A DNA stretch of 64,000 nt from a virus: IMG/VR virus record IMGVR_UViG_3300024999_000068, positions 1 through 64,000 of that record; one strand, given 5' to 3'. Position numbers and translations under genes: made by a program. The notes beneath the pieces are model-generated. The model was given only the letters and a program-made list of their open reading frames with translations, ran no database searches and was not told the DNA's origin. Within the stretch, counting starts at the first letter, position 1; every line of letters starts with the position of its first letter. Below are positions 8,969 through 33,497 of the stretch, piece after piece.

Positions 8969-9080
8969 ATAAATATGGTTTTTTATAGGTCAGGCCAGAT
9001 TTATAAGAGTAATTAAGAGAGGCTGTGATTCTGATAAACAGTCTCTCTTCCCATTTATTCCTTTAATCAGAAGGGGGAAG
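8968..9080 (+). ncRNA. Cloverleaf leader RNA, copy 2
   Basis: Hairpins ttataggtc/gatttataa and aagagaggctgt/acagtctctctt; loop ttctgat complementary to atcagaa (9066-9072) abutting the RBS ggggg. Confidence 0.55.
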
Positions 9081-10498
9081 ATGCTAATGTCAAAAAGAAA
9101 TACATATGAATACGTCAAAAATGTAATAGAAGTTGAAACTAATATTGGATGGAAATTATTAAGTAAAATGTACATAAAAATAATCTAAACTTGTATATGC
9201 TTTGTGATAAAGGACATCCCGTACATATATCTTTTTCAAATTTCATTTCTGGATGTCGATGTAAGCAATGTTATTTAGATAAACTTAAAGAAATAAAAAA
9301 GTCAAAACCTAAAATAATAAATTCTGACGCTAGAGTAACCAGGAATATTTATGGATATGCCGATTGGGTTTATTCTGTTTTTGAGCGTGACAACTATACG
9401 TGTCAAAATTGTGGAGAAAAGAAATATGGTGATCTTAATGCTCATCATTTAGATGGATATAATTGGTGTATAAGTCGTAGAATAGATGTGACTAATGGGG
9501 TTACACTTTGTACGGATTGTCATAAAGAATTTCATCATAATTACGGATACGGGAATAATACCGAAGAACAGTTTATATCTTGGTCAATGGATAATGAAAA
9601 TAGTATATTTGATATTGATGAAGTAAAGAAAGAATCAGTCTTTAAAAATCGTCCTCCTAAAAAACAGACTATAGGAACTAAAGAATATGCTAGAAAGTAT
9701 TATTTAGAAAATAACCAAACATATTCAGAAGAAGATTTGGATAATATTTTTGATGAAATTATGACAGAATATCCTAATCCAGAAAATTTTACTACAACTA
9801 AATTTAAGGATGTATCTGGCGTAAACCCCATGAGTTTTACGGGAGTTTTTAAAATGCCTTGGATAGACGTATTAGATAAATATGGTAAGAAAGATGAAGT
9901 ATTCAAATATATTTGTGATGAATATCTAAATAATTATTATAAAGAATATAACTGTAGTTTTGAGGTATTTATTGATTTACATAAATATATTTCGCAGGAT
10001 TTAATCAAACAATATACAATAGAAAAAATTAAAGATTCTTGTGGATTTAAAGGATCTCACCAACAACATAATTTTGAAGGATTAAAAAGAAATTTATATG
10101 ATGTAAAAAATTCTTTAAATAAAATACCTTTCTTTAAAGAATTTATGGAATTGACAAGTATTTCTCTGTCATCATATTATAATTACTTTAGTACTAATAG
10201 TTATGATGAATTCATATTAAATTTCATAGATAATAAGGATGATTTAAAAGAATACGAGAAAAACAAGAAAGATAGAATGATTCAAATTTCAGCTATAGGC
10301 GGTAGGAATTCTGGATATACAGATGAAGAAAAAGAGGTAGAATTTAGAAGAGTATTTGATGGTTATTTTATTAAAAATGATAAATATCCAACTAGAAGAG
10401 AGTTTAATGATCTTTCTAAGTATTCAGAAAAAGCATATATGAAGAAATGGAAAATTAGTTGGAATAAAGTAAAAATAAAATATGGATATCCAGCATAA
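9081..10498 (+). pseudogene. HNH endonuclease with apparent frameshift near 9176-9181
   Basis: RBS and ATG at 9081/9087 open MSKRNTYEYVK...LLSKMYIK, which stops at about 9186; the ORF at 9191 continues in another frame with RDNYTCQNCG...AHHL...NGVTLCTDCHKEFH (HNH). Confidence 0.65.
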
Positions 10499-16422: not shown

Positions 16423-16984
16423 ACGAAGAATACGTCCAAGAGTGGTTGTTGATACCAATATATTTTTGAATTCATGGATAGACGGTTTAGGTAGTTGCAA
16501 TTACATTCTTGAATTAATTTCTATTAATAGTTTGAGATTATTATTTTCACAAGATACTATTGGAGAGTTCCTATATGTAGCGAAAAATTATTGTATATCA
16601 AATATGAGTAGTGATAAATCTAGAATCCCATTTATGCAAAATTTAGCTGAGATGTTTTATTTGGCAATATCTGTTGATACTTCAGAAACATTATGTCCAA
16701 AAATTAATGATATTTATGATGAGATGTTTCTGAAGTGTGCGATCGAGGGAAAAGCCAATTATCTTATCAGTAATGATTTTAGAAGTGGCATGCACGTATT
16801 AGGGATAAATGATAAAAATGATATTAAGATAGTTAGTTCTCAGGAATTTATTAAGACGTATGAAGAGTTGTTGGTTGGATATATTCTTGTTTTGTTAGTT
16901 TTGCAGAGGATAAAAATTGAGAGTTATAAACTCAATGGGGAAAACTCCACCCTCCTCTGTATTTATATAGAAATTATTATATAA
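16412..16984 (+). CDS. PIN-domain (VapC-like) putative toxin
   Basis: RVVVDTNIF, E in DTIGEF, DEMFLKCA, YLISND: the PIN acidic residues. Confidence 0.8.
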   Translation: MKNKRRIRPRVVVDTNIFLNSWIDGLGSCNYILELISINSLRLLFSQDTIGEFLYVAKNYCISNMSSDKSRIPFMQNLAEMFYLAISVDTSETLCPKINDIYDEMFLKCAIEGKANYLISNDFRSGMHVLGINDKNDIKIVSSQEFIKTYEELLVGYILVLLVLQRIKIESYKLNGENSTLLCIYIEIII

Positions 16985-17157
16985 ACTAATAAATAAAATT
17001 ATTTGACACAACGTTGGAGATAATGATATAATTAATCCATAAATAAAAAAGTATTGATATCTCACTTTTAGGACTCATCTTTCTTTTAAGATACATATGT
17101 GTTTTTACAACATATGAGTTTCTGGTATAATAACTAGAGAAGAAAGGATGAGATAGA

Positions 17158-17521: not shown

Positions 17522-18002
17522 GCGTGAAATCAATTATAATGAACTAGTTAGTATCTCAGATGCCTATAGTGGTAAGCAAGTACAGGTATTTTTATCTTCT
17601 CCTATCCAGTCTATGAATACATATCAAATGTTTCGACTAGTAGATGATGGAGATAATCTAGAGTTTTATGACATAAATATTAATAAACCAACTCTTCAGG
17701 AAATGATGATTCCTAAAGATACTATTAAAGAGATTAATTATTTTGAAGGTGGAAATATCTATGAATCAGTATTCTCTATTAGTTTATTAAATGAATGTCA
17801 AATTGATTTTGCTATTAGTGAAAAACCTATGGTTTGCAAGAAATGTGACAAATTGTTAGATAGACATTTAATCCCATCTTGGCAAATAAATCAGATTGGA
17901 AGTTATGGTAGTCAATGGGATAATGAACGTGTTGTGATCGATTTTTGTGAAGATTGTTTGTTGGAATTTCTTGGCTATAAGGATGGTGAGATAGATGAGT
18001 AA
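17508..18002 (+). CDS. Hypothetical protein with C-terminal Zn-binding CxxC pairs
   Basis: CKKC ... DFCEDC. Confidence 0.55.
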   Translation: MFRNMREINYNELVSISDAYSGKQVQVFLSSPIQSMNTYQMFRLVDDGDNLEFYDININKPTLQEMMIPKDTIKEINYFEGGNIYESVFSISLLNECQIDFAISEKPMVCKKCDKLLDRHLIPSWQINQIGSYGSQWDNERVVIDFCEDCLLEFLGYKDGEIDE

Positions 18003-18762
18003 ATTAACATTATTTCAAAATGATAAATTTGGTAACATTAGAGTATTTATCAGAAATGAAGAGTTTTGGTTTGTTGCAAAAGATATATCAGATATACTCA
18101 AATATTCTGAAACAAATGCCATGACTAAGCGATTGGATAGTGATGAAATCATATCCGACAAATTGGAGGGTATGAATATGAAATCAACTTTAATAAATGA
18201 AAGTGGATTATATAATGCAATAATCGGTTCTAAATTGCCTGAAGCAAAGTTATTTAAAAAATGGATTACTTCTGAAGTGCTCCCTTCTATCCGTAAACAT
18301 GGTGCTTATATGACCGAAGATGTAATTGAAAAGACTTTAAATGATCCAGATTTTATTATTCAATTGGCAAATCAGTTAAAAGAAGAGAAGCAAAAGAGAT
18401 TATTTGTCGAGCAACAATTAGAAGAGCAGAGACCAAAAGTTGAGATTTATGATGAGTTAATTGATCAAAAAGATTTAATGAATTTTAAACAAGTTGCTAA
18501 TACATTTGGGTTTTGCGGAAGAAATACACTCATGAAAATATTGAGAGAAGAACATGTACTGTCTGACAATGGTTTTAATTGGAATCTACCATATGCTCAA
18601 TATCTTGAGGCCAATTTATTCAAAGTTAAGATTATCCCAAGAAGGACTCGTGATGGTGTGACAAATATTTGCACAACTTTGTGTACAGTGAAGGCATTGG
18701 AGTTTATTAAGAGGATTTTAGACAAAAAGAAAAGCTTGCAGTTAGAGCTACAAACTTTTTAG
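17995..18762 (+). CDS. Phage antirepressor (BRO-N + ANT/KilAC)
   Basis: WFVAKDI...INESGLY...FKKWITSEVLPSIRKHGAY; GRNTLMKILRE. Confidence 0.9.
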   Translation: MSKLTLFQNDKFGNIRVFIRNEEFWFVAKDISDILKYSETNAMTKRLDSDEIISDKLEGMNMKSTLINESGLYNAIIGSKLPEAKLFKKWITSEVLPSIRKHGAYMTEDVIEKTLNDPDFIIQLANQLKEEKQKRLFVEQQLEEQRPKVEIYDELIDQKDLMNFKQVANTFGFCGRNTLMKILREEHVLSDNGFNWNLPYAQYLEANLFKVKIIPRRTRDGVTNICTTLCTVKALEFIKRILDKKKSLQLELQTF

Positions 18763-18808
18763 GGTTTTTAATGAATTCATGTAAGTAGGATTATACCATA
18801 GATTTAGA

Positions 18809-18839
18809 GAAGAATCCATAGAAATATGGATTCTTTTTG
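18809..18839 (+). terminator. Rho-independent terminator
   Basis: aagaatccata-gaaa-tatggattcttttt. Confidence 0.7.
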
Positions 18840-18954
18840 TGATTGAAAAAATTAAGGTAGGTATAACCTTGCCCCTACGTCAAATATATGACGCACCATC
18901 AAACACAAGGAGTGTTAAATTTCTCCCTTAGTTTTAGTTTAATTTGATAGTTTT

Positions 18955-19071
18955 ACTAGCAGGAGATAGTGGCCTAATTACCCACTATTAGATGTAACTC
19001 GCACATCGCTTCTTGCTAGTTTTTATAATTATGGGCGAGTAGACAATAAAATAAAAATAAGAAAGCGAGTT
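18955..19071 (+). ncRNA. Cloverleaf leader RNA, copy 3
   Basis: Outer stem actagcaggag/cttcttgctagt plus T-run; hairpins atagtgg/ccactat and gatgt/acatc; loop aactcgc complementary to gcgagt (19035-19040) and gcgagtt (19065-19071, RBS position). Confidence 0.7.
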
Positions 19072-19078
19072 GTTGTAA

Positions 19079-21730
19079 TTGGAAAATGTTAAGGGTGAGA
19101 CTAAAGAGTTAAAAGAAATAAATAAACTGATAAATAATAATTGGTACGAGTATATTTTGGATGAGATTAAAAGTTTGTCAAGAGTAATGTCAGATACTCA
19201 ATTGTCAAAACACTATGACAAACCAATATCGAATATAGAGAAAATATTATATAAGATATTAAAGATTAACAGAAAATCACGTATTGAGAATTTAACCAAA
19301 GAAGAAATTATACAAATATATGAATATGTTCTATCAGGAGAAAGACTAATGTTTCCTAATGATTTTTATACTAAAGAAAAACATCATGAAATATTATTAA
19401 CATATCTTTTTAAAGAAAAATTAAATTGGGATACATATGATATATTAAAATATTTTAATTTTTCAACATTGGATAATAATAAGCTCTATGGATTAAGAAA
19501 AAATAAAAAGGTTATTGATATTGTAAATTTAATTAATAACATATTTAATACGGATTTTAAAATTTGGCAATATCAAGAATCTACTACTAATCATTATTTT
19601 GATTCTAAAAGTAATCTTGACGATGCAATAAAATGGTTTAAAGAAAACATCGCAAACGATAAAAACATTTACACCATTTATGAGGCATATAGTTATGGAC
19701 TTAATGCTTTGGCACATGAATACAAATTGTATCAAGGATTAATTAAAGGGAAGTTTGATAATAAACATTTTGACTTTTACGAATATGTATTTCAAGAAAA
19801 ATTCGACATGCAACATTACAAAAATAACAATTATCCTTTTGATATATTATTAATACCGATATCGTTAGATAATAAATCAATAATATATGAATTAACAGAT
19901 GCTTATTATAATTTAGATGATATTGGAAAAACACTAATAAATTGTATGATTAGGTATTGTGAAGAAAATAATAGATTCCCAACTTTTAATGATATGTTAA
20001 TAAAAGATGGATACATAAGTTATGATTATTATAAAAAATATTTTAGCAATATGGAAAACTTAAATAAATATATCTACAGACTTGATTTAAGACCAGAAAA
20101 AATGATATGCAATGACTGTTGTGAGGAATTTCCTTTTACAGAAGAGTTCTTTACTAATTCTAAAACAGACAGATTTGGACTTCTCTATCAGTGTAAAAAG
20201 TGCAATAGTAAATATACAATGAGATCGCATTATAAAAAAATTGGTATAATATTAGAACGGGATGTTACTGAAATTAATCCAACACAGTGGTGGAAATATG
20301 CTCATGAGGGAACGATACCTAAGATGCCAGATTTTTGTTTTGAAATTAACAACATGATAAAAATTATAAGACATGTATTTCACAATGAATTGAAGTTTAT
20401 CAATAAAGAAGATTTTCTAGATATTGATAGATATAATGTTCGCATGAATACATCTTTGTTTATTAGTAGCATATACTCTAAATTCTTTACGAAGAAAGAG
20501 ATGTTTCAACAATGCTTTCCAGAATATGAATTTATAGATGATGATTTTAATATTTACAATGATGAGAATACTAACAATATAATTAAAGAATGGATTGAAT
20601 TCAATAGTTTAAAAATAATAGATTTATTAAAGAACGGAAATACATCATTGTTCGATAAGGAAATTAACAATCTATATGTTACTAGATTTTGTTCAATCAC
20701 AGATATGTTTTTATGGTATTTTAATTATAATAATGTATTACATCCAATCCATAAAAGAGTAATATCTGTTTTTGATTTTCAACAAAAACCAGATGGGTTT
20801 TGGGATGTAAAAGAAAATAGAATAACTCGTATAAAGATGTATTGTGAACAGGAATGTAAAGAAAGCATCTTAAGTGTAATTAATGATAATATTTTACTTA
20901 AAAATTGGACTAAACGATATTTTACAATGTTAAAAATCAGTAAAATAGTTATCAATTACAATAAGTATAATAATACACTGTATGACACGCTTATAGAAAC
21001 TTATCCAGAAATAAAAGTTAATAATATATTATTTAGTTGGGAATGGGTACAGATTAAAAATGGAACTTACTCAAGAGAGTATTTGATAGATTGCTTGAGA
21101 GAATTGGTCATATATCGTATGAATGATTTGATAATAGACATAGAAGAAGACTTGCCAAGGTATATGAATAATACATATATAAATACAATTTATCCAAGAT
21201 TTAATCAACATAAAAATAAAAATTTTAAATCATATTATGAATGGTCTTGCCTAGCTTTCCCCGAATACGATAATGAGTGGAAACCAGATGACTTTGGGAG
21301 TACATACGCTTTTGATGGTGCAAAATGTGATAGCATTCAAGAAAAAATGGCTTATGAGTATATTAAAAGAGACTTTGGTCTTGAGTATATTATGAGTATG
21401 GGAAGGAGGCATAGCGGTTCACATATAATAGAAGTTGATAAAGAAATATATGGATTTAAAAAATGTTGTCCAGATTTCATTATTGAAAAAATATTTATTA
21501 AAAATAGGATAAAACAATTAGATAAGCCAATTTATATTGAATATTATGGTTTATATGTTGAAAATAATAAAGATAAGATATTTGTCAACTATGTGAAAAA
21601 GACTCATCAGAAAAACGAAATATACAATTCACTAGATAATATTATATTTATAGCACTGTATCCATCAGATTTAAAAAATAACTGCGAAGGAGTAAAGAAT
21701 AAAATGAATAATGCATTGTCAAAAATATAA
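19079..21730 (+). CDS. Large multi-repeat endonuclease-like protein (helical repeats, Zn finger, C-terminal PD-(D/E)XK)
   Basis: C-terminal DSIQEKMAYEY...PDF...YIEYYGL; central CxxC...CKKC. Confidence 0.6.
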   Translation: MENVKGETKELKEINKLINNNWYEYILDEIKSLSRVMSDTQLSKHYDKPISNIEKILYKILKINRKSRIENLTKEEIIQIYEYVLSGERLMFPNDFYTKEKHHEILLTYLFKEKLNWDTYDILKYFNFSTLDNNKLYGLRKNKKVIDIVNLINNIFNTDFKIWQYQESTTNHYFDSKSNLDDAIKWFKENIANDKNIYTIYEAYSYGLNALAHEYKLYQGLIKGKFDNKHFDFYEYVFQEKFDMQHYKNNNYPFDILLIPISLDNKSIIYELTDAYYNLDDIGKTLINCMIRYCEENNRFPTFNDMLIKDGYISYDYYKKYFSNMENLNKYIYRLDLRPEKMICNDCCEEFPFTEEFFTNSKTDRFGLLYQCKKCNSKYTMRSHYKKIGIILERDVTEINPTQWWKYAHEGTIPKMPDFCFEINNMIKIIRHVFHNELKFINKEDFLDIDRYNVRMNTSLFISSIYSKFFTKKEMFQQCFPEYEFIDDDFNIYNDENTNNIIKEWIEFNSLKIIDLLKNGNTSLFDKEINNLYVTRFCSITDMFLWYFNYNNVLHPIHKRVISVFDFQQKPDGFWDVKENRITRIKMYCEQECKESILSVINDNILLKNWTKRYFTMLKISKIVINYNKYNNTLYDTLIETYPEIKVNNILFSWEWVQIKNGTYSREYLIDCLRELVIYRMNDLIIDIEEDLPRYMNNTYINTIYPRFNQHKNKNFKSYYEWSCLAFPEYDNEWKPDDFGSTYAFDGAKCDSIQEKMAYEYIKRDFGLEYIMSMGRRHSGSHIIEVDKEIYGFKKCCPDFIIEKIFIKNRIKQLDKPIYIEYYGLYVENNKDKIFVNYVKKTHQKNEIYNSLDNIIFIALYPSDLKNNCEGVKNKMNNALSKI

Positions 21731-21831
21731 AGTAGATATAAATAACAATGAGTTTCAATTAAAACTTGCATACCTCATATGTTTGTAATATAATGTAAGC
21801 ACCTATAAAATCGAACAAGGAGGTATGCAAC

Positions 21832-22311
21832 ATGAAAAAATTAATTAGTTACTTTTTAATAATTATATCAATGTTAGGACTAGGAGGGTGTTCTAAACAA
21901 TATTCATCATCTTCTATAAATTTAAAATCAGAATACATTAAATCGTTTTCACCTTCTTTTGCAATTGATGCAGATAAAGTAACTAAGGTATCGATAGATT
22001 TATATAATCAAGTAATAAGTAACAAAATATCAGAAGTAGGTTTTAATCCACAATATCGTGATTTTTACAAGGTGGAACCACAGAATGCAGACGAAAAGGA
22101 TTTTCAAGACTATATTAAAGAATTTGCAATTAATTATTCTACGCTAGAACTTGATAATTCTACTATTAAAGCAGAACAATATTTGCGAGATAGTGGTTCA
22201 AGGAGTAAAGATGACTATGATATTTTTATGGGGAAATACAAAATTAAAGTAATAGAAGATTTAAAAAATCTTAAACTTAATTTAGATAATATAATGGAAT
22301 ATTACGAATAA
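21832..22311 (+). CDS. Lipoprotein (moron, possibly superinfection exclusion)
   Basis: MKK-hydrophobic-LGGC lipobox; own promoter TTGCAT-17-TATAAT (21766-21794). Confidence 0.7.
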   Translation: MKKLISYFLIIISMLGLGGCSKQYSSSSINLKSEYIKSFSPSFAIDADKVTKVSIDLYNQVISNKISEVGFNPQYRDFYKVEPQNADEKDFQDYIKEFAINYSTLELDNSTIKAEQYLRDSGSRSKDDYDIFMGKYKIKVIEDLKNLKLNLDNIMEYYE

Positions 22312-22327
22312 TAAGGAGTGTTGATAC

Positions 22328-22879
22328 ATGACAGAGCAAAAATTATTAACAATTGAAATGATAAGAGAAAATGAGTATATATTTGGTTCTGAATTAGAAA
22401 TTAAAAATTATTTATCTTTAAATGCAAAGAAAATATTAATTAAGAAAATTTTAAATTTATGTCTTATTGATGGAAATATTAAAAAGATTGATTTTGCTTT
22501 AAAAGAATTTGCATATGAATATGTGATGGTAAATGAATATTCGAATTTAAATTTTGATGTAGAAGATGTTTTAGAATTATATGATGAACTTAAAGAGAAT
22601 TTGGTAATTAATACTATACTAAAATTAATTCCTGAGTCAGAAAAAGAATTTATTGATTATATATTGCGAAAAGAAATTGAACAAATTCAAGTTGTCGATA
22701 ATAGTTTGGCAACTGTAATTAGTAAACAGTTAAGTAGACTTGTAGAAAAACTTCCAGATAGTGTAGAAATTAATAAAATGATTCCTAAATTAAGTAAACA
22801 AATAAATAAAATATCTCCTGATTCTTTTAAGTTTTTAACAGATGCTATTGGATGGAGTAAAGGAGACAAAAAAGAATAA
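22328..22879 (+). CDS. Putative tail assembly chaperone-like protein
   Basis: Helical acidic protein upstream of the tape-measure region. Confidence 0.4.
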   Translation: MTEQKLLTIEMIRENEYIFGSELEIKNYLSLNAKKILIKKILNLCLIDGNIKKIDFALKEFAYEYVMVNEYSNLNFDVEDVLELYDELKENLVINTILKLIPESEKEFIDYILRKEIEQIQVVDNSLATVISKQLSRLVEKLPDSVEINKMIPKLSKQINKISPDSFKFLTDAIGWSKGDKKE

Positions 22880-22991
22880 TATTTTATTAAAAGATAAAAT
22901 CAATATTATTTATATTTTAAGAAAACTTATAGAAATGTAGGTTTATTTTATTGTGGATTTATAGATTGAATATATTTAACAGATAGTCTTT

Positions 22992-23096
22992 GGCAACATC
23001 TGCAATTGCAATGCAGTAGAAGAGGTAAACTCCCCTCTTCTTTTTTGTTGCCTTTTTATAATGTTTTGGATGGAGTAGTTAATAAATTTAAGGAGT
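22992..23096 (+). ncRNA. Cloverleaf leader RNA, copy 4
   Basis: Outer stem ggcaaca/tgttgcc plus T-run; hairpins ctgca/tgcag and gaagagg/cctcttc; loop actcc complementary to ggagt at 23072-23076 and 23092-23096 (RBS). Confidence 0.7.
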
Positions 23097-24219
23097 GATG
23101 GAAATGTTCGAAGATTTTTATTGGGAAGAAGATAGTATATCTGATTTTAGAAGACTAAATATTATACATAAAAAATTTATTAGGGAGAAAGAAAAATTTA
23201 TAAATTACAATGGACAATTTCGTATGTGTAGTAAATGTAGAGAAAAATTACCTTTAAATAGTTATTTCTTTCATTCTGGTGGAAAAGATAAATACCATAG
23301 ATATTGCAAATTATGTGAAGGGTCTTCATCATACGGATGGGGACGAAAAGAAAATAATTTGTTTAATGAATCTGGACAGCACTATTGTACAAAGTGTGAT
23401 AGAATTTTGCCATTAAACGAATACTATTTTAGCAAAACAACAGGGCGATGTAATAAAACAGGATTTTCTAGTAATTGCAAGGAATGTAGAAATAAAGATT
23501 CTAATTTCCAATTTCATAGTTTAAATAATTATCATGAACTACTTGATATTAAAAAAGGATTTAAAATATGCTCAGATTGCTTATTAGAATTACCAGATAA
23601 TGATAATTATTATTTCAATAGAAATGATCGAGAATATGGTCATACTCAGTGTAAAAATTGTAAGGGTTTTGAATATGGTGTTCATAGAATTAATAGAGTT
23701 ATGGAAAAACATTTACCAGTAGGATATAAATTTTGTTCAAATTGTTTAGATATTTTTAAAGTAGAAGATATGTCTTATGGTATGGTATATTGTCAACCAT
23801 GTGCAAATGAAAAAAGTGGTGTTTGGTCTAAAACTGACAAGGGCAAACAATATAAACGACAATTTAGACAAATCCGTAGGGCTAAACAATTATTTTTACG
23901 TAATGATTTAACGGAAGTTCAATGGGATGAAACATTAAAATATTTCGATCATTCTTGTGCATACTGTGGAACTACAGAAGAAAAACATAAACAAGAAATA
24001 GAGCAGGTACTTCATCAAGAACATGTAATTCCGATATCTAAAGATGGTGAATATACAAAAAATAATATTATTCCTGCATGTAGAAAATGTAATTATGCGA
24101 AATATACAATGTCTTTAAAAGAATTTTATATAAAAACAAAACATTTTTCTGAAAAAAGATATAACAAAATATTGAATTTTATACTAGAAAATTCAGAAGT
24201 AATTCAAAATACAAATTAG
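23095..24219 (+). CDS. HNH endonuclease with tandem Zn-finger repeats
   Basis: Repeated CxxC..LP...YF...CKxC units; CAYCG...EHVIPISKDG...NIIPACRKCN. Confidence 0.85.
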   Translation: MMEMFEDFYWEEDSISDFRRLNIIHKKFIREKEKFINYNGQFRMCSKCREKLPLNSYFFHSGGKDKYHRYCKLCEGSSSYGWGRKENNLFNESGQHYCTKCDRILPLNEYYFSKTTGRCNKTGFSSNCKECRNKDSNFQFHSLNNYHELLDIKKGFKICSDCLLELPDNDNYYFNRNDREYGHTQCKNCKGFEYGVHRINRVMEKHLPVGYKFCSNCLDIFKVEDMSYGMVYCQPCANEKSGVWSKTDKGKQYKRQFRQIRRAKQLFLRNDLTEVQWDETLKYFDHSCAYCGTTEEKHKQEIEQVLHQEHVIPISKDGEYTKNNIIPACRKCNYAKYTMSLKEFYIKTKHFSEKRYNKILNFILENSEVIQNTN

Positions 24220-24260
24220 TTAATAAGAATCGTCTTAATAATAATATGGGAGATGACATC

Positions 24261-24677
24261 ATGGATTTTAAAGACTTAAAATCCCTAGAATTGTATTTAC
24301 AAAAAAAAATATCCGAATCTCTCCAAACCGATGTAGCGTTGGAAAGTAGACATCTTATACGTGAAAAAATACAAACAGTGGTGCTAGAGGCATATATTCC
24401 CCAAGATTATATTCGCACATATGAAACAATTAATAGTTGCGTATCTATTCCAATTGGTAATTATACAATTGAATTAAAAAATACAAGAGAAGGAGATAAT
24501 GGAGAGAATATACCTTATATTTTAGAGAGTGGAGTTGGTTATTCTTGGGGAAATAATCTAGATGAAAGAATTGGACCAAGACCATTTATGAGAAAAACAT
24601 ATGAAGATTTAGCAATAGGGAAAGCAAGATTATTTATGAAGATTGCGTTAAAAAAACGAGGTATAAATACTATATAG
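24261..24677 (+). CDS. HK97 gp10-like tail-completion protein
   Basis: YIRTYE...ILESG...GPRPFM motif directly upstream of the tape measure gene. Confidence 0.55.
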   Translation: MDFKDLKSLELYLQKKISESLQTDVALESRHLIREKIQTVVLEAYIPQDYIRTYETINSCVSIPIGNYTIELKNTREGDNGENIPYILESGVGYSWGNNLDERIGPRPFMRKTYEDLAIGKARLFMKIALKKRGINTI

Positions 24678-24749
24678 AAAAACAACTCCCTACTCTTTGA
24701 AGTGTAGGGTATCTTTATGCCCGAAATTACATAGAGAGGATGATTTAAT

Positions 24750-26156
24750 TTGGATGATTTAAATATTCTAATCAAAGCTAAACTATCATCAACAGCAACA
24801 GAGATTGGAACACAAATAAAGGCATTAAACAAACAGATCACAGAAGTCATTTCTGTAAAAATGAAGATTGATGCAAAAGATTTAGCAATTATTAATGATA
24901 CTTTAGATAATATAAGAAAACCAAAAAACGGTGGTAAGATAACTGTTTTTAATGAGGCAGATTTAAAAGCACAAGGGGTTAAATATAAGCAAGGTGTAAT
25001 GAAAACTATTGAAGATGTTGAAAAATATCTTAAAGGTGCTTTTAATGGTAAGAAATTTGATCTAGGAGCAATTGTAGCAGATTCAAGTGGGAATATCAAA
25101 TCATTTGAAGCAGGTATTAAATCTGCAAATAATCAATTAGAAAAAGTAAAATTTAATTTAGCAGAAATATCAAGAATAAGCAAGAGTGGAGTTGCTAGTA
25201 CAAATTCAGGATATGTATTAAGTAGTTCTCAATTATCAAGAATAGCAGTCAAACCTGAACAAATTTTTGATAGGACAAAATTAGAAGCAGAAGGTAGGCA
25301 ATTTTTTGTTTCTTCGTCTAATATTGTTGAACGAGTTAAAAAAGAATTTAAATCTCTTGGAGATGTAGATGTTAAATTCTTAAAAAATTCACAACAAGAA
25401 ATAATTGGTTTTACTGCTAATGTTACTAAGGTTAATGGTGTAATAGAGCAATTAAAATTCAATATGGCAAGAATACAATCTGGAAATAGTGTGCAAAGAG
25501 GATATGTATTTTCTGGAGAAAATTTAATTGATAAAAATGCAGGTTCTAATATACAAAAATCATTAGATAAATTGCAATTATATGAGAATAAAATTGCTAA
25601 ATTAAAGGCAGGATTTACATCTCCCACAACTGGAATATCAAACACAGAGAATTTAGCGACATTAACTTCCCAATACGATAGAATTAAGGCAACTATAGAC
25701 CAAACAAGACTAAGTAGCACAAACCTATCTAATGAACAAAGAAGAGGCATGATCCAAAGTATAACTAATTTGGAATTAGAAATTTCTAAATATAGAGATT
25801 TACAAAGAGTTATGAAAACAAGCACTGGAGGTTCTTCTAGTACTTCTGGAACTTTAAGCGATAAAGATATATCTCTATATCAAGATAGTATGACAAATAA
25901 ATTAGCTAGTTTACAAGTTGGGAAAAGTGCAGTTTTTGCAAGACCAGAAATTATAGCAGAAATGAATCGTTTAACACAAAGCGTAGCAAGATTTGGAGAA
26001 GTTGGAGGATTATCTGCTAGAGAAGTTAATTTACAATTTGCTCAATTAACAACATCTGTACGAAGAGCAACTGCTGAAATCACAAGAATAAATGGTGCTG
26101 CAGATAGTGTAGCAACGACCTTCGGGAAGGATATTTTTAAACTCGGAATTTGGAGT
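24750..26156 (+). CDS. Tape measure protein, exon 1
   Basis: Coiled-coil N-terminus ending ...KLGIWS at the group I intron; joins in frame with exon 2 (about 2003 aa in total). Confidence 0.75.
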
Positions 26157-26666
26157 AATAAGTATTATTTTGTCGAATATATGTATGATTAATTACATAT
26201 TCTACAAAAACGTAAAGCTCCGCATATAGTGTGAACTGTATGTAGTGATAGATGACGGATAACAATCTATCCAATATCTCATCAATTGCTGGCAATCGCT
26301 AAGAGCTAACTAAACTACAACGTAGGTATGAAATAAGGCCAAGCGTGAATGTTGCGAAAGTAGAAAAAATTAGTTAGATGGCATATGGTTAAATCCTAAG
26401 TGCTATAAACAATGGGTCTTCAGCATCTTATATCCGAATAGGATACAGTTCAACGACCATTCCCCTTGAGGGAAGTAGGGCCAAGTGGTGGGCGAAAATC
26501 CCTTAAATCGAAATGAGAGACTTTCTTATAAATAAATATAATTTATAAGAAATGATGATATGGTCTGGGCTTGCATGGAAATCATGCAGAAGTTCATGTT
26601 AAATAATAATATATAATTATTTAATTGAGAACTGGCAGAAATTAACGAATTCTGTCGAACACTCCG
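26157..26666 (+). ncRNA. Group I intron without ORF in the tape measure gene
   Basis: P1: exon ggagU pairs with IGS gcucc (about 26217); core motifs aattgctggcaa, tcagcatc, gttcaacgacca (R) and gatatggtc (S) with gacca/tggtc P7 pairing; P9 hairpins. Confidence 0.85.
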
Positions 26667-26667
26667 T

Positions 26668-29600
26668 CTAGCCGCTACGCTAATGTACGCGCCATTTAGA
26701 GCCTTGAAGGATGGTATTCAATACGTTTACCAGATGGATACAGCTTTGACTGATTTGTCGAAAGTTGTCGATTTTTCGTCTAATCAATTAAGTGAAATGG
26801 CAGATTCAGCAGTTAATCTTGGAAAACAGCTTGGGCAATCTAGTGTTGAAATTATGAAAGGAATGGCAGAATTTGGAAGAGTAGCAAAGAATCAAAAGGA
26901 TATTATCGAGTTGACTCGCGTGGCTGGGATGGCAAGTAACGTCACTACTATGTCAGCCGCAGATGCCGCCAAGAATATTACGAGTAGTATGATTACTTTT
27001 GGAATAGAAGCAAAAGATTCTATGAAAATATTAAATTCTTGGAATGAGATCCAGAATAACTTCCGTGTTAGTGCTGAAGACCTTGCAGCAAGTATTTCCA
27101 AAATTGGGGCAGCCAGCAGGTTAGCAAATACTGATATGCAAGATTTAGAGGGCATGAGTTCTGCAATCGTGCAATCTTTGGGAATTTCTGGAAATGAAGC
27201 TGGAACAGCTTTAAAAAGTTTCATGAGCAGAATATATAGAACTGATGAGTCTGATCCTGAAGAACTAGGGAAAACTGCAAAAGCATTAAAAAGTATTATG
27301 GATATTGATACATCAAAAGCGAACGGAGAACTTAAAAGCTTTAATTCCCTAATTTCAGAAATTCAAAGTGGATGGGGAAAAATGTCGAAACAAGAACAGT
27401 TGGCAGTGGCTCAAAGTATGGGTTCTACGTATCATTACTCGAAATTTGTCGCATTAATGGAGAATTACCAGATAAAACTTGATGCTGCGGCAATGGCCCG
27501 TAACAGCGAAAACAGTGCTTTGGAAGAAAATGCCAAAAAACTTGACTCAATTTCAGGTCGTTTAGGATTGTTGAAAGTCGCATCAGAAGAATTTTGGAGA
27601 TCATTAATTGATTCTAATGCGCTAAAGTCAATGGTATCATCTTTGACTTATTTAGTTTCTACTTTTGCTAACTTAAGAACAATCATTATGACTGCAGTCT
27701 CCGCACTTCTTATACTTAAAGGAACGCAAATTGCCTCTACTATTTCTACATGGTCAAGTTCATTTCTTATGTGGTCTACTTCTGCTAGGACTGCCACCAT
27801 ATCATCGACTTTGTTTAATTCAAGTATAGTTCAGACACAAGCAAGATTAGCGGGATTGTCATTTGCTGAAATTGGAGCAATGACAACCACTACAGGATTA
27901 GGAGTTTCTATTAAATCACTTGGTTTTGCCTTCAAAGGATTATTAGCATCTATCGGCCCAATTGGATTACTAGTTGGTGCTATTACTGCTGTCTCAATAG
28001 GCATGAGTATTTATAATCAAAAACAAGAAGAAAATGCTATGGCATCAGAACAAGCATCCCAAAAATTAAATCAAGAACAAGATGCATTAAGCGGATTGTC
28101 AGAAGAATATTCAAAAATAATCCAATCAGGAGACAAAACGGCAGAATCAAAAAGTCGTTTAAAGGGCATTCAAAATGAACTTATAAAAACTTATGGAATA
28201 GAGGCCGAAGGTCTAGATTTAGTTAATGGAAAATATACAGACCAAATTGCTTTAATAAATAAAGTTATATCTGATAAGGCTAAAGAACAATTAGCATCAA
28301 TGGGCAATTCAGGAGCAGAAGCGTTAGCAAATTCTACAAGGGTTTTAAGTAGTCAATTTGGCGCAGGAGACTCTAGAGGGAATAGAAGTGTAGTTGACCC
28401 TGTTTTTAATTCTATAGTTGGAAAATCTGTTGGAGAATCTACTCAAGGTAAAGAATTATTCGAAGTTAATGGCACTCTGAAAGAAAGAGTTGCAATATTA
28501 GAGAAATTAAAATTATCTTTAGATAAAACAAATGCCAATGACGTATATTCAAAGTCTGTAATTAAAGATGTTACTGACGAATATAATAAATTAAATAGTG
28601 AAATGAAGGCAAATCAAACTGTCCTTGACAAATATCTTGAAAATAAAAACATTGTAGATTTCTATGACTCCTTCAAATCTAATATTGGTGAAGTTTCAGA
28701 TTTAATGAGTAAATTTTTAAAAAATCCTAATGATACTGGTTTAACTAAACAATTGAATGAATTGCATGATAAAATGATAAACTTAGCAGATTCAAAAGGA
28801 AGACTTGGAGATTTTCAATCTTTCATTGATGAATTATTTGGGGGAATACCAAATAAAGCAAATGATGCATCTGATGGCACGAATAATTTTTCAAACTCTC
28901 TTAAAACACTTCAAGAAACAATGTCCACATCTGCATCATCTATATCAGACATCCAATCTGCTATGGATGAATATAACGAATCTGGAAAGTTTAACTTGGA
29001 TACCATCATCAAACTATCTAAAACATATCCAAAACTTCTTGAAATGCTTGGCAATGAATCAAAAATAAGAGATTTCTTAACTAGTAAAATAAAAGAGGAA
29101 CAAGAAGTCTCTCGTAGAGCATATGCTCAAATGCTTATGGATAGCGAAGAATTCTATAAAGCAAAAGTTCTAGGCAATGCACAAGTAATGGATGCCTTAT
29201 CTAAATTATATAATGGAGATTTAAGTCAATATAAATCACTGGCCGAAGCAAAAGCAAAAGTGGATCAAGAACTAATTCAAAGATTAGCATCACTTTGGTC
29301 TAATTATTATAGGGCAGGAGCATTGGTAGCTCAACCTTTAGATGGTGGAAGAACGGTTGTCGGGGCAGATGGTTCAGAGCAGTTCATCACACCTGAAATG
29401 AAAGCGCAATTATCTGGATTAAAAGAATATTCAAATCAAATGAGTGCGTTGGCATCTGCTATGGATGGAATTGCAATGAAAGGCACTTCAGGCATTGACT
29501 TCTCAAAAATAGGCATGTCAGGTTCAAAAGCATCTGGTTCAAAAGACAAAACAGACAAAACTCAAGATCCATCATACACAGATCCTACGGATGCCTTAAT

Positions 29601-31272
29601 AGCAGAAGCAAATGCACAGTCACTTCTTACAAAAGCAAAATCAGATGCAATACAAAAAGAAATAGATCAAGCAAAATCTGCTAAAGACTATTCTCTAATC
29701 TTATTAAAAACGACAGAACTTATTGCTAACCAGAAATTAGAACTTCAACAACTCAACGATGCTCGTACAAAAATAAATACGGCAAAAGATACTGCATTAT
29801 CATCATCTCCATTTGGAGACACGTCACGTTGGTTTAATGATGCAAATGAAGCATCTTCTAATTATGTTAATGAATTTAACAATTCTACAGCAGAAGTTCA
29901 AAAAACTATGGAATCAACTTTTTCAGTGATGCAGAAGTTAAGAAAAGGTTGGGTAGATAACAAAAAGTCAGTAGATGAACTGACTGATTCACAAGTAAAA
30001 CTTAAACAATCTCTCCAAGACATAATCACAACCCAAGCAGATGAAGCAGTAGAAGCATTAAAAGCATCATTAGAAAATCAGAAAAAACTAGATGACGAAG
30101 CATGTGACGCAAAAATAAAAAATCTTGATGCAACTCATCAAAAAGTTCTTGATTATATAGATGAAGAATTATCTGCACAAGAAGATGCAATTAATAAACA
30201 AATATCATTAATTGATGAACTTGCAAATGCTGAAGATTATAATAAAAATTTATCATCTAAACAAACTTCTGCTCAAGAAACACAAAATCAAATTAATATT
30301 CTCTCACGAGATACTTCTCCTGAAGGAAAGGCCAAACTAGCAGAACTTCAAAAAACTCTAGCAACTCAAAATTCTGAAATTGAAGACCTACAAAATAGTC
30401 ATTCTCGTGAACTTAGGAAACAGAATCTTCAAGATGCTTTAGATGCTATTAAAAAAGAATCAGAAGCAAAGAAAAATTCTGAAAATGAAAAGTATAATGC
30501 CACCAAAGATAGATTATCAAAAGAAAAAGCAGAAACAGACACAAATTATACAGCAATGATGGGTAGCGATCAAACTTTTGCGGCATTAAGACAAGCAATT
30601 ATTGATGGAAATATTGTAAATATTAAGGAAGCTTTATTAACTTTTAATAAAGATTTTACTAAAGATTTAACAGACAAAGCAGATGCAATTGATAAAAGTT
30701 TTCAAGCAATTATTGCTACAATTAAGCAAGTAAAAGATGTTGCTAATACCATTCCTGAAATACCTGCAAATGCAAAGGGGACAAAATCATCTGCTAGTGG
30801 ATTATCCATAGTTGATGATGGAAATGGAAGAGAATTAATAAGAACTCCTAATGGCAAAATGTATTTAGGTGACAACAGTGGACCCAAAATAGTAAATTTA
30901 CCAGAAGGTTCAGAAGTTCTTAACAATAGTGAAACAGAAGATTTTCTAAAAAAAACATCATCAATTAAAGAAATCCCTAGATATGCTAGTGGAATTGGAA
31001 ATTTAACCTCTAACACAATCATATCAGACATAATATCAAAATTTGATATTCCATCACTCTTAAAATCCATATCATTACCAACATTTTCCATGCCATCATT
31101 CCAAACTCCACAATTGGCAAATAATATTTCTACAAATACGAACGTCACTATCCCTAAAATAGAATTTAATGTAACTGCTGAAAATGGTGAAATATCTAAA
31201 AAGAATTTACAAAAAGCAGCAGATTATGTAATCCGACAAATAGAAAAAGCTCAGACAATTAGAGGAAGATAA
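26668..31272 (+). CDS. Tape measure protein, exon 2 (TP901-type core)
   Basis: MDTALTDLSKV...EFGR...NNFRVSAEDLA...SGNEAGTALK; C-terminal AKGT...GRELI...LPEGSEVLNN. Confidence 0.9.
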   Translation, partial: LAATLMYAPFRALKDGIQYVYQMDTALTDLSKVVDFSSNQLSEMADSAVNLGKQLGQSSVEIMKGMAEFGRVAKNQKDIIELTRVAGMASNVTTMSAADAAKNITSSMITFGIEAKDSMKILNSWNEIQNNFRVSAEDLAASISKIGAASRLANTDMQDLEGMSSAIVQSLGISGNEAGTALKSFMSRIYRTDESDPEELGKTAKALKSIMDIDTSKANGELKSFNSLISEIQSGWGKMSKQEQLAVAQSMGSTYHYSKFVALMENYQIKLDAAAMARNSENSALEENAKKLDSISGRLGLLKVASEEFWRSLIDSNALKSMVSSLTYLVSTFANLRTIIMTAVSALLILKGTQIASTISTWSSSFLMWSTSARTATISSTLFNSSIVQTQARLAGLSFAEIGAMTTTTGLGVSIKSLGFAFKGLLASIGPIGLLVGAITAVSIGMSIYNQKQEENAMASEQASQKLNQEQDALSGLSEEYSKIIQSGDKTAESKSRLKGIQNELIKTYGIEAEGLDLVNGKYTDQIALINKVISDKAKEQLASMGNSGAEALANSTRVLSSQFGAGDSRGNRSVVDPVFNSIVGKSVGESTQGKELFEVNGTLKERVAILEKLKLSLDKTNANDVYSKSVIKDVTDEYNKLNSEMKANQTVLDKYLENKNIVDFYDSFKSNIGEVSDLMSKFLKNPNDTGLTKQLNELHDKMINLADSKGRLGDFQSFIDELFGGIPNKANDASDGTNNFSNSLKTLQETMSTSASSISDIQSAMDEYNESGKFNLDTIIKLSKTYPKLLEMLGNESKIRDFLTSKIKEEQEVSRRAYAQMLMDSEEFYKAKVLGNAQVMDALSKLYNGDLSQYKSLAEAKAKVDQELIQRLASLWSNYYRAGALVAQPLDGGRTVVGADGSEQFITPEMKAQLSGLKEYSNQMSALASAMDGIAMKGTSGIDFSKIGMSGSKASGSKDKTDKTQDPSYTDPTDALIAEANAQSLLTKAKSDAIQKEIDQAKSAKDYSLILLKTTELIANQKLELQQLNDARTKINTAKDTALSSSPFGDTSRWFNDANEASSNYVNEFNNSTAEVQKTMESTFSVMQKLRKGWVDNKKSVDELTDSQVKLKQSLQDIITTQADEAVEALKASLENQKKLDDEACDAKIKNLDATHQKVLDYIDEELSAQEDAINKQISLIDELANAEDYNKNLSSKQTSAQETQNQINILSRDTSPEGKAKLAELQKTLATQNSEIEDLQNSHSRELRKQNLQDALDAIKKESEAKKNSENEKYNATKDRLSKEKAETDTNYTAMMGSDQTFAALRQAIIDGNIVNIKEALLTFNKDFTKDLTDKADAIDKSFQAIIATIKQVKDVANTIPEIPANAKGTKSSASGLSIVDDGNGRELIRTPNGKMYLGDNSGPKIVNLPEGSEVLNNSETEDFLKKTSSIKEIPRYASGIGNLTSNTIISDIISKFDIPSLLKSISLPTFSMPSFQTPQLANNISTNTNVTIPKIEFNVTAENGEISKKNLQKAADYVIRQIEKAQTIRGR

Positions 31273-31332: not shown

Positions 31333-31438
31333 AAGAGCAGATATATTGGAGTTATAAACCAATGAAAAGTGTTCCTCAAGCACTCTGCTCTTTTTTACTA
31401 TGTAATTTTTGAGGTTAATGGTCAATAATTTGAGGAGG
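31333..31438 (+). ncRNA. Cloverleaf leader RNA, copy 5
   Basis: Outer stem aagagcaga/tctgctctt plus T-run; hairpins attgg/ccaat and agtg/cact; loop cctcaa complementary to ttgagg at 31409-31414 and 31430-31435 (RBS gaggagg). Confidence 0.7.
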
Positions 31439-31447
31439 TTGAAAATA

Positions 31448-32650
31448 TTGAATAATTTAGGTAGAAATATTAAACTCACTATTGAAGAAGTTAGAGAAAT
31501 TATTAAATGTTTGGGGTATATATTAATTAGTAAAGAGTATTTAGGTATTAGTAAAAAATTAATAATGTGTGATGTATTGGGTTATTATTATACTTTTCGT
31601 TTAAATGATATAAATAGTGGAAGATTGCCAAGAAAATTTTCCAAATCGAATATATATACTATTCAAAATATAAAATTATGGTGTAAATTAGAAAATAAAG
31701 AGTTTGAATTAATTAGTGATATTTATAAAGGTAGTAAAGTAAAATTAAAATGGAAATGTCTTAAAGAAGAATGTGGGGAAATATTTGAAGCAGAGTGGGA
31801 TAATATACAAAGTGGGAATAGAGGTTGTCCGTTTTGTTCTGGGCATAAAGTGGGTTTATCTAACTGTCTTGCAACTAAAAATCCTAAATTAGCAAAAGAG
31901 TGGCATCCTACTTTGAATGGTGATCTAACCCCTTATGATGTAACAGAGCATAGTGGTAAATATGTTTGGTGGAAATGTTCTAAAAATTCAAAGCACGAAT
32001 GGAGGACTATGATAGCAGATAGGAGTGATAATAATTGTCCATATTGCAGAGGTTATTATCCATCTGAAGATCATAATCTATTATTTAATAACCCTAAACT
32101 TTGTGAAGAATGGAATTATGACAAAAATGATAAATTACCTTCGGAATATACACCATATACTATGCAATCAGTTTGGTGGAAATGTAGAGATTGTGGGAAT
32201 GAGTGGGAAGACACTATTAATCATAGAAATAATGATAGAGGTTGTCATCAATGTAATAAACCAAAAGGAGAAAACAAATGCAAGGAAGTATTTATTAATT
32301 ATAGTTTTGTCGAAATAAATCAAAGAGATTATTTTAAATTACCAAATAAAAATGATAATACATACTTTATTCCACAACAGAAATTTATAGGGCTTGTTGG
32401 TATTGGTAATGGCCCATTATCATATGATTTTTATATACCAAAATACAACCTTCTCATAGAGTATCAAGGAGAATTCCATGATGGGACTGCAAAAATACAA
32501 ACAAAAGAAGGATTTGAAATTCAAAAAGAACACGATAAACGTAAAAAAGAATATGCTCTTTCCAATGGATATAATTTTTTAGAGATATGGTATTACGACT
32601 TTGATAGTATTGAGGAAATACTAAATAAATATTTAGGAGGTGAAAAATAA
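31448..32650 (+). CDS. Zinc-ribbon + Vsr/DUF559-like endonuclease, paralog of 5342-6646
   Basis: Shared GLSNCLAT.NP.L.KEWHP and SYDFY...LLIEYQGE.H motifs; likely start TTG 31448 after gaggagg. Confidence 0.75.
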   Translation: MNNLGRNIKLTIEEVREIIKCLGYILISKEYLGISKKLIMCDVLGYYYTFRLNDINSGRLPRKFSKSNIYTIQNIKLWCKLENKEFELISDIYKGSKVKLKWKCLKEECGEIFEAEWDNIQSGNRGCPFCSGHKVGLSNCLATKNPKLAKEWHPTLNGDLTPYDVTEHSGKYVWWKCSKNSKHEWRTMIADRSDNNCPYCRGYYPSEDHNLLFNNPKLCEEWNYDKNDKLPSEYTPYTMQSVWWKCRDCGNEWEDTINHRNNDRGCHQCNKPKGENKCKEVFINYSFVEINQRDYFKLPNKNDNTYFIPQQKFIGLVGIGNGPLSYDFYIPKYNLLIEYQGEFHDGTAKIQTKEGFEIQKEHDKRKKEYALSNGYNFLEIWYYDFDSIEEILNKYLGGEK

Positions 32651-32653
32651 TAA

Positions 32654-33469
32654 ATGCCAATATCTGAATCAATTTCATTTATGTTTAATAATCAATTATC
32701 AACTGATTATGGAGTAATAAATTGTCATGTTGATACTAGTGGACTATATGAGGAAACTTTTCTCCCATCTAGAGAAATGAAAGAAATAACAACACGTATG
32801 TCTGATAAACCATATCTTGTCCAGATAAAATCTTCGCCAAGAATATTAAACTTAACAATTGCGTTTTTAAATTCATTTGATGAAAATAATCTTCGCAATG
32901 TAAAACGATGGCTAAGTTCTTCCGAATATAAACCAATGTCCTTTGAATCAATTCCAGATACAATATTTTATTGCACACTTATAGATAGTACACCATTACT
33001 GCATAATGGAAATAATCAAGGTTATATAAATTGTCAAATGCGTTGTAATTCTCCATACTCATATTCTCCAGTATATCTCGACGATTTAATTGACCTCTCA
33101 TTAAATCCAATAGAAGGTACTCAAATAATTTTCACTAATCTTGGAGATGTTCCGTGTCAACCTCAAATATCATTATTAAAGGTAAATGATGGTGATATTA
33201 GTATAATAAACAATTCTAATGGAGGAAAAGAATTCAAATTATCCTCATTATTAGATGATGAAGGAGCAATAATTCCATTATCTTCTTTAAAAAACAATGA
33301 AGATTTGTTCATTGATAATGAGAATGAAGAAATAATATCTTCGATACCATTAACTTATCGAATAAATAATCTTACAGGTGATTTTATTTCCCTTGGTAGA
33401 GGTATCAACAACCTAATTATAAAGGGAACTTGTAAAATACAATTCAGATACCAATTCAAAATGATTTAA
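32654..33469 (+). CDS. Distal tail protein (Dit)
   Basis: Follows the tape measure gene; CNSPYSYS, NLGDVPCQP, LGRGINNL motifs. Confidence 0.8.
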   Translation: MPISESISFMFNNQLSTDYGVINCHVDTSGLYEETFLPSREMKEITTRMSDKPYLVQIKSSPRILNLTIAFLNSFDENNLRNVKRWLSSSEYKPMSFESIPDTIFYCTLIDSTPLLHNGNNQGYINCQMRCNSPYSYSPVYLDDLIDLSLNPIEGTQIIFTNLGDVPCQPQISLLKVNDGDISIINNSNGGKEFKLSSLLDDEGAIIPLSSLKNNEDLFIDNENEEIISSIPLTYRINNLTGDFISLGRGINNLIIKGTCKIQFRYQFKMI

Positions 33470-33497
33470 AACCATATTCAATGAGAGGAGAATTAAT

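Follow-up and report, generated by a model that had tools for sequence, protein, structure and literature searches.

A family of three-way-junction leader RNAs with variable loops complementary to the initiation regions of phage homing endonuclease genes

Introduction

In T-even phages, the ribosome binding site (RBS) of homing endonuclease genes is masked by RNA structure. There, a local hairpin contains the RBS, a late promoter inside gives unmasked transcripts, and the masking by upstream RNA probably serves low or timed expression (PMC2988022). The harmlessness of free-standing homing endonuclease genes in essential phage operons has been explained for only a few such T-even cases. The present work deals with a family of leader RNAs upstream of homing-endonuclease-like genes, of which five proposed copies (c1 to c5) lie in a stretch of 64,000 nucleotides, hereafter the window. 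The window is the first 64 kb of the IMG/VR virus record IMGVR_UViG_3300024999_000068 (86.5 kb, 86,550 bases; estimated completeness 57%). The leaders resemble the T-even systems in that an upstream RNA would mask the endonuclease RBS. They differ by a separate junction, a long-range loop acting on two boxes, a U-rich tail, promoter-like boxes located upstream and a second loop that is palindromic.

The c4 RNA of phages P1 and P7 (immI; Rfam family RF01695) is a small co-linear upstream RNA whose loops pair with repeated downstream sites including the RBS, and changes in loop or target set its specificity. Each of its two loops, which differ from one another, has a target of its own downstream, and the RNA is released from its precursor by RNase P. 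The c4 antisense RNA regulates ant (PMC8201110). The initial annotation of the window likened the leaders to c4. The analogy holds for the logic, which is that of a structured upstream RNA pairing with repeated downstream sites including the RBS; it fails for membership, as no RF01695 match was obtained and only one loop targets the mRNA. In the leaders both boxes match the same loop, the second loop is complementary to itself, the targets are endonucleases and not icd/ant, and the 3' end would come from a U-tract and not from processing. The leader is c4-like in logic and T-even-hairpin-like in purpose, and it is a member of neither system.

No family of Rfam 15 matches the leaders at any of the thresholds applied. 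The whole window gave no match at gathering score, and at E-value level the leader regions gave unrelated matches only (best E 0.047 or weaker). C4 (RF01695) had no match at gathering score in the 64 kb and was absent at E<=10 from the leader regions of c1, c3, c4 and the IMG/VR locus L010 as well as from the phage's own genome. The int-alpA RNA (RF02996), likewise a small phage-associated candidate RNA of ~71 positions, had no match at E<=10 in the own genome and was absent at E<=5-10 from the leader regions searched. The main text of PMC5737381 mentions neither int-alpA nor HNH or homing endonucleases. In the literature available to the search, no description of such a leader was found.

The kissing-loop dimerisation site of HIV-1 genomic RNA is a hairpin loop of ~9 nt, in the centre of which lies a 6-nt palindrome with unpaired purines on either side. 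The hairpin-1 loops of the leaders are likewise palindromic with purine flanks, for example A-G-UAAUUA-A. They differ from the HIV-1 site in belonging to phage/bacterial leaders, in having mostly A-U-rich palindromes and in that their dimerisation is inferred only.

Results

Fold and loop complementarity of the leaders in the window

Minimum free energy (MFE) and centroid folds were obtained with RNAfold, and z-scores and counts refer to 200 shuffles per copy. The five leaders had been proposed to share one design, namely an outer stem (P1) enclosing two hairpins. This arrangement was the MFE and centroid fold of c1, c3, c4 and c5, with z-scores of -5.48, -4.21, -4.53 and -2.85, respectively (shuffles folding as well: 0, 0, 0 and 3 of 200), and the common design stands for these four copies. 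It does not extend fully to c2 (z -3.67), where both hairpins are solid and the centroid retains no more than 2 bp of a weak outer stem. The leaders are the following.

257-334, plus strand: c1 three-way-junction leader; P1 GGGA/UCCC; hairpin 1 at 268-299, loop GUUCGAAA; hairpin 2 at 304-326, loop AUUCCGA.
8979-9049, plus strand: c2 leader; hairpin 1 at 8979-9009, loop AGGCCA; hairpin 2 at 9015-9049, loop GAUUCUGAUAA.
18955-19024, plus strand: c3 leader; outer stem 18955-18964/19011-19020; hairpin 1 at 18966-18988, loop CCUAAUUAC; hairpin 2 at 18991-19007, loop AACUCGC; T-run 19020-19024.
22992-23057, plus strand: c4 leader; outer stem 22992-22998/23046-23052; hairpin 1 at 23000-23016, loop AUUGCAA; hairpin 2 at 23018-23041, loop UAAACUCC.
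31333-31398, plus strand: c5 leader; outer stem 31333-31340/31385-31392; hairpin 1 at 31344-31364, loop AGUUAUAAA; hairpin 2 at 31368-31384, loop CCUCA; T-run 31393-31398.

The hairpin-2 loops are those given by the initial annotation, the one of c5 reading (UU)CCUCA(AG) with its flanks. The T-run announced behind the outer stem of three copies was found directly behind it in c3, c4 and c5; c4 has one T-run behind hairpin 2 and one behind the outer stem. A T4-type RBS hairpin was considered for c1 to c5 and rejected, as the RBS is matched by a loop that lies at a distance in a separate junction and no well-placed promoter was found.

Each hairpin-2 loop finds its complement in short boxes of the 5' untranslated region (UTR) of its own gene, some of them at the Shine-Dalgarno sequence (SD).

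344-368, plus strand: c1 boxes; TCGGA 344-348 and CGGA(GG) 363-368, the latter being the SD; start GTG 376.
9066-9080, plus strand: c2 box, single; ATCAGAA 9066-9072 running into the SD AAGGGGGAAG; start ATG 9081.
19035-19071, plus strand: c3 boxes; GCGAGT 19035-19040 and GCGAGTT 19065-19071, the latter 7 nt before TTG 19079.
23072-23096, plus strand: c4 boxes; GGAGT 23072-23076 and 23092-23096 (SD).
31409-31438, plus strand: c5 boxes; TTGAGG 31409-31414 and 31430-31435, the second within the SD GAGGAGG.

The targets had been reported as present twice in four of the five copies, the last one at the SD position. Two exact boxes were confirmed for c3, c4 and c5, with the reservation that the c3 gene has no canonical SD; c1 has one box and a partial second one, and c2 has one only. 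No other copy pairs as weakly as c1 (5 nt at the first box, 4 nt and one G.U at the second). The longest own-copy matches of c1 to c5 measured 5, 7, 7, 5 and 7 nt, and the 20 cross-copy cells ranged from 2 to 5 nt, 5 being reached once. Against dinucleotide shuffles the P values for c1 to c5 were 0.18, 0.028, 0.013, 0.32 and 0.024, which places the window only modestly above the shuffled controls. From the window alone, loop/box matching is suggestive. The corresponding matrix for loop 1 showed no own-copy excess of UTR complementarity for the hairpin-1 loops of the window.

Relatives of the leaders and covariance models

Protein relatives gave access to further loci in IMG/VR, 54 for the c5 endonuclease and five for the c1 protein, and the upstream regions of many of them repeat the leader design with other loop and box sequences. 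Loop ACAUCUCCUCAU of L006 goes with boxes AUGAGGAGA and AGGAGAUGU, loop ACUCCUA of L010 with UAGGAGU twice, and loop CUCCUAA of L018 with UUAGGAG twice. The leaders of L002 and L024 are near-identical to that of c5. The c2 protein had one distant relative in IMG/VR, and close relatives of the c3 and c4 proteins were not found there. Among 5.8 billion proteins, three relatives only were found for the c3 protein.

A covariance model was built from five leaders (R1), and a second model (R2) was run on the whole 86,550 bases without filters. At E<=1, R1 produced 65 matches in 581 kb of IMG/VR loci, corresponding to 32 distinct leaders, and it scored c1 at E 2.4e-13 to 5.9e-13. With R2, c1 (E 1.6e-8) and c5 (E 2.5e-6) were recovered as members. 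An alignment of 35 matches (A5; 33 distinct rows), whose fitting to the covariance model favours the structure, had 97.8% of its cells paired versus 71.5 +/- 1.3% in shuffles; both-sided changes occurred in 14 of the 15 pairs, none of 500 shuffles reached the observed value and slid controls stayed at or below 61.8%. The covariance-model approach proposed by the initial annotation has therewith yielded a family with covarying helices. Its consensus of ~65-80 nt consists of P1 (GGGA/UCCC), a junction UAG, hairpin 1, a junction YUGAUA and hairpin 2, which is stacked on P1.

The claim of a real, modular RNA was borne out by the genes downstream, since genes of at least four endonuclease families (DUF7487, DUF4379-HNH, NUMOD4-HNH_3 and the DUF4046 protein of c3) have the scaffold in front of them. 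Endonuclease-type Pfam domains were detected in 15 of 20 downstream open reading frames (ORFs), two of them below the Pfam cut-off, and in seven of the nine ORFs found by the RNA pattern alone. This pattern, a degenerate DNA version of the conserved core, matched 50 IMG/VR stretches with 29 distinct sequences, two of which (L092 and L097) are chance-like and were not recovered by the covariance model. In bacterial and archaeal genomes it matched 66 stretches, about the number estimated from chance, and only three of these passed the covariance model at E<=0.01 (a metagenome-assembled genome (MAG) of Prevotella, a Segatella copri chromosome and one borderline case). Across 121 genomes of the Segatella genome's family, R2 gave one match, in the query genome itself. 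The two bacterial copies (L129, L147), one each in the Segatella copri chromosome and the Prevotella MAG, belong to a gut-type subfamily, whose endonuclease genes have little or no SD.

Among cultured phages, neither megablast nor tblastn with the window genes gave a match. A blastn search with the L061-type leader and gene start matched only the HNH coding parts of 129 records and covered the leader in none, and the L010 leader gave no blastn match. Geobacillus virus E3 (L184) was considered as a carrier of the leader and rejected: R2 reached only E 0.2 and 1.0, and both sites are plain terminators. At 31948-39589 of this virus, the tape measure gene is annotated as two pieces ~310 nt apart.

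Taken together, the leader is a real, uncatalogued and widespread RNA family. Within the window, c1 and c5 clearly belong to it, whereas c3 and c4 are diverged copies of the design and c2 is a partial one.

Covariation of loop and boxes

The statement that loop and target co-vary was examined with 25 distinct hairpin-2 loops (32 instances), the weak rows L028, L063:6464 and L070:7307 being set aside. For each loop the lengths of the two longest complementary stretches in its own UTR were added up, which gave a total of 324 over the 25 loops, whereas permuted pairings gave 214 +/- 12.5 with a maximum of 256, so that none of 5000 permutations reached the observed value. At least two Watson-Crick sites of at least 5 nt were present for 22 of the 25 loops. 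RNAduplex energies were -10.05 kcal/mol on own UTRs versus -6.4 on foreign ones. In contrast to the window copies, the relatives are thus far above their controls, and the co-variation holds. It extends to c3: a homologue of this protein with 71% identity is encoded on a metagenome contig (L180), the leader of which keeps the upstream terminator, the GATAGT box, the hairpin and the T-run. Its loop is CUCCUA(UG) and both boxes are CAUAGGAG, the distal one being the SD; in c3, AACUCGC goes with GCGAGU(U). Loop and boxes have changed together, which indicates that the c3 element co-varies with its targets too. For c2, UUCUGAU goes with AUCAGAA, and in the c2-like L012, CCAGUA goes with UACUGG.

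Box 1 begins 10-32 nt after P1, and 0-13 nt separate the end of box 2 from the start codon. Most copies pair across the GGAG of the SD. L072, L084/L078 and the L061 type have little or no SD, and their box 2 lies directly against the ATG, which suggests that the target is the initiation region as such and not the SD sequence. Some boxes keep the pairing through G.U (L084 box 1, L036 box 2, L105 box 2), and the comparison of G.U with other mismatches comprised too few events (2 versus 3). A comparison of box numbers between leaders with and without the palindrome was uninformative when G.U was allowed. Readings of box 1 as part of an upstream ORF or of an internal promoter were, by eye, inconsistent between copies.

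Palindrome, U-rich tail and promoter-like boxes

A palindrome of at least 6 nt was found in 20 of 26 distinct hairpin-1 loops, while in 5000 rounds of shuffling the number of such loops averaged 3.4 and never exceeded 10; none of the 26 hairpin-2 loops has one. Seven kinds occur: UAAUUA, UUGCAA, UUCGAA, UCAUGA, UAGCUA, UUAUAA and GUCGAC. The window copies have five different centres (c1 UUCGAA, c3 UAAUUA, c4 UUGCAA, c5 UUAUAA, and in c2 GGCC only).

The 10 nt behind P1 contain 66% T versus 32% in the background, and 26 of 30 tails have at least six T in 10. On the other side of the structure, nine of 30 leaders have a TAnnTTTG box whose end is 4-5 nt away from P1, compared with two hits over 58 other distances; we take this box to be the -7 promoter element of Bacteroidota. 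All nine are located on gut-type contigs with an L061-like scaffold (including L061, L072, L084, L098 and L105). Perfect TTGACA-17-TATAAT promoters positioned to start at P1 were found in L070 and L045, and ahead of many leaders the preceding gene has a terminator of its own. The number of promoter-like sites was 138, compared with 130 +/- 10 in shuffles. A GATAGT box stands 3-4 nt upstream of the structure in c3 (18946-18951), c4 (22982-22987) and L180 (218-223); it could represent a -10-like element, or else what is left of the family's GAUAG junction motif.

Discussion

Proposed function and alternatives

With a probability of roughly 60%, we consider that the leader combines a terminator or attenuator with an anti-RBS loop and acts as a self-contained expression brake of free-standing homing endonuclease genes. 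The scaffold RNA of ~65-80 nt folds as a three-way junction with a U-rich tract behind it, and because of this tract the junction is probably an intrinsic terminator or attenuator, where the majority of transcripts would be released as a small RNA. In those that read through, the variable hairpin-2 loop would pair with the two repeated boxes of the 5'UTR over 5-10 bp. With the distal box covering the SD or the bases abutting the start codon, the 30S subunit would be blocked and little endonuclease produced. Loop and both boxes being copy-specific, each cassette would control its own gene only. Judged from sequence, the leader is likely to be a translational brake; we infer repression from where box 2 lies and from the example of the T-even phages (PMC2988022).

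A simple mask in cis leaves the conserved second box and the palindromic loop unexplained, and a kissing dimer or a trans action of the terminated RNAs would explain both. Through the hairpin-1 palindrome with its unpaired flanking purines, a leader would kiss either another leader or a terminated small RNA, and the resulting dimer would offer two identical anti-RBS loops to the two boxes. The leaders would then be orthogonal, programmable small RNA repressors with their own promoter, a terminated RNA of ~70 nt and a kissing dimer of the HIV-1 type clamping both boxes in trans. This extension is put forward tentatively and is itself rather doubtful. If it were true, the bivalent dimer would give a copy-specific and dose-dependent 'immunity', by which many selfish nuclease genes could coexist in one phage without cross-talk.

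Several points weigh against the brake or against parts of it. Termination is made uncertain by the lack of a T-run behind the outer stem of c1, by a consensus P1 of only 4 bp and by tails that are interrupted U-tracts. Hairpin 2 of c4 (23018-23041) is a canonical terminator and c4 the sole copy flagged by a simple terminator scan, the definition of which does not take in the branched stems of the other copies. No convincing promoter-like box was found upstream of P1 in the window copies, and a search for RNA runs covering 18500-28400 found none. That the endonucleases are toxic, as put forward in the initial annotation, is an assumption. Most palindromes are AU-only or contain two G-C pairs, so that kissing would be weak, and in L018 and L105 leaders of one contig share the palindrome and differ in the anti-RBS loop, which fits strict copy-specific dimers poorly. 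As for the family itself, the R2 scores at the sites of c4 (E 2.4) and c3 (E 6.6) are below significance, c2 had no R2 match at E<=10 in the 86,550-base genome, and the A5 alignment carries the bias of its fitting. The association with endonuclease genes is biased too, since many loci were collected through endonuclease homologues. Loop matches restricted to the window are weak, those of c1 and c4 not exceeding dinucleotide shuffles. Finally, an endonuclease-like gene at 5342-6646 has no leader, and the element is therefore not universal even in this genome.

The best surviving alternative, which we nevertheless hold to be unlikely, is a two-state switch acting purely in cis, in which the loop sits on box 1 as a decoy (ON) or on box 2 (OFF) and neither trans action nor a dimer is needed. 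A protein or the kinetics of folding might set the balance between the two states, and expression would thereby be kept constant and low. Such a switch would suit the conservation of two near-identical boxes for 22 of the 25 loops and the early transcription of box 1, 10-32 nt after P1; pairings of 5-10 bp are adequate for intramolecular contacts, and leader and target are always on one transcript. However, it has no role for the palindromic hairpin-1 loop or the U-rich tail, and it leaves unexplained why the loops differ among the ~90%-similar scaffolds of L010, L018, L068 and L063.

An insulation of the T4 type, in which the RBS is masked only on long upstream transcripts and a promoter between junction and RBS yields unmasked late mRNA, appears improbable for the leaders. 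It is documented for I-TevI, I-TevII, I-TevIII, segB and the Aeh1 mobE (PMC2988022). The location of the genes within late structural operons and a TATAAT directly behind the T-run in c3 and c4 would agree with it, but this -10 hexamer is at chance level in such AT-rich DNA (138 versus 130 +/- 10). Moreover, the clear promoter-like boxes are located upstream of P1 and not behind it, a separate terminator of the upstream gene lies ahead of many leaders, and box 1 would be left without a role.

We regard as similarly improbable that the leader is a translational activator, whose long-range pseudoknot between loop and box would open or organise the initiation region and be needed for translation. 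Translation of repZ of IncI-alpha plasmids needs an activating pseudoknot of this kind. Box 2 is located in the loop of a small local hairpin, or beside its stem, in L010, L018, c1 and c2, and several target genes without SD (L072, L084) might need help in initiation; yet most copies have the GGAG of the SD within the paired stretch, which should block the pairing with 16S rRNA. That the repeats are a signal at the DNA level, protein-binding or recombination/homing sites with an incidental RNA fold, is scarcely credible: the boxes are direct repeats, the palindromes resemble sites of dimeric proteins and I-TevI binds an operator at its own promoter, but the helices show compensatory changes, the G.U-compatible deviations are strand-specific, the palindrome varies freely in sequence with its self-complementarity kept, the model hits at E<=0.01 are all on the strand of the gene and the element is common to several unrelated nuclease families.

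Under the preferred reading as an expression brake, the family consists of a fixed scaffold and a freely re-programmed recognition loop, and it would, if repression is true, represent a ready set of mutually independent RNA off-switches. It spans phages with SD-type initiation sites, Prevotella-type phages and one Segatella chromosome. Should the dimer also be true, it would be, as far as found, the first kissing-loop-dimerising regulatory RNA described in phages. The covariance model can serve as an annotation marker for endonuclease cassettes.

Genomic context and further elements of the window

Siphovirus-type tail genes are present in the window (tape measure 26683-31272, Dit 32654-33469, large tail protein 33498-38795), and the endonuclease genes sit within late structural operons, that of c5 being flanked by the tape measure and Dit genes. 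All six genes downstream of proposed leaders are homing-endonuclease-like by Pfam/PHROGs, and they fall in different families, DUF7487, HNH, DUF4379-HNH and GIY-YIG/NUMOD3.

376-1644, plus strand: c1 gene, homing-endonuclease-like (DUF7487; PHROG homing endonuclease); start GTG 376.
9081-10498, plus strand: c2 gene, HNH endonuclease in two frames, 9081-9186 and 9191-10498; start ATG 9081.
19079-21730, plus strand: c3 gene, 883 aa, with weak DUF4046 and EndoVII-like/HNH matches only; start TTG 19079.
23095-24219, plus strand: c4 gene, HNH endonuclease; listed start GTG 23095, likely start ATG 23104 in the same frame.
31448-32650, plus strand: c5 gene, DUF4379/HNH-type homing endonuclease; ORF listed from 31409, likely start TTG 31448.
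53662-54723: GIY-YIG/NUMOD3 gene, homing-endonuclease-like (Pfam/PHROGs).

The c2 gene, with frames read by eye, consists of a 35-codon N-terminal piece from ATG 9081 to the stop at 9186 and a remainder from 9191. The break lies at an A-run near 9176-9180 and could be a sequencing error, a pseudogene or slippage. A hairpin with a T-run at 18808-18840, ~110 nt upstream of the c3 leader, is the terminator of an Ant-like gene (17995-18762); it is conserved in L180, so that the c3 cassette looks like its own transcription unit. The seventh endonuclease-like gene, the one without leader at 5342-6646 (HNH/DUF4379-type, PHROG 559), follows its upstream gene by 22 nt. A search for tRNA and tmRNA found none in the window.

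A further junction was detected apart from the five leaders.

16900-16968, plus strand: possible orphan three-way junction that shares its hairpin-1 loop, AGUUAUAAA, with c5; fold z -4.02; R2 E 0.43.

No endonuclease gene lies behind this junction, which may be the relic of a lost cassette; a perfect TTGACA-18-TATAAT promoter follows at 17003-17032.

A compact variant of the leader had also been proposed at 53596-53650 (plus strand), ahead of the GIY-YIG gene. It was rejected as a member of the family, with a fold z of -0.09 (77 of 200 shuffles fold as well) and no R2 match. The stretch contains three adjacent small hairpins, the tips of which are palindromic (UUGCAA, UAGCUA and UGAUCA); UUGCAA and UAGCUA also occur in hairpin-1 loops of the leader family. 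Its last hairpin (53630-53648) is a local CCUCC/GGAGG hairpin that covers the SD of the GIY-YIG gene.

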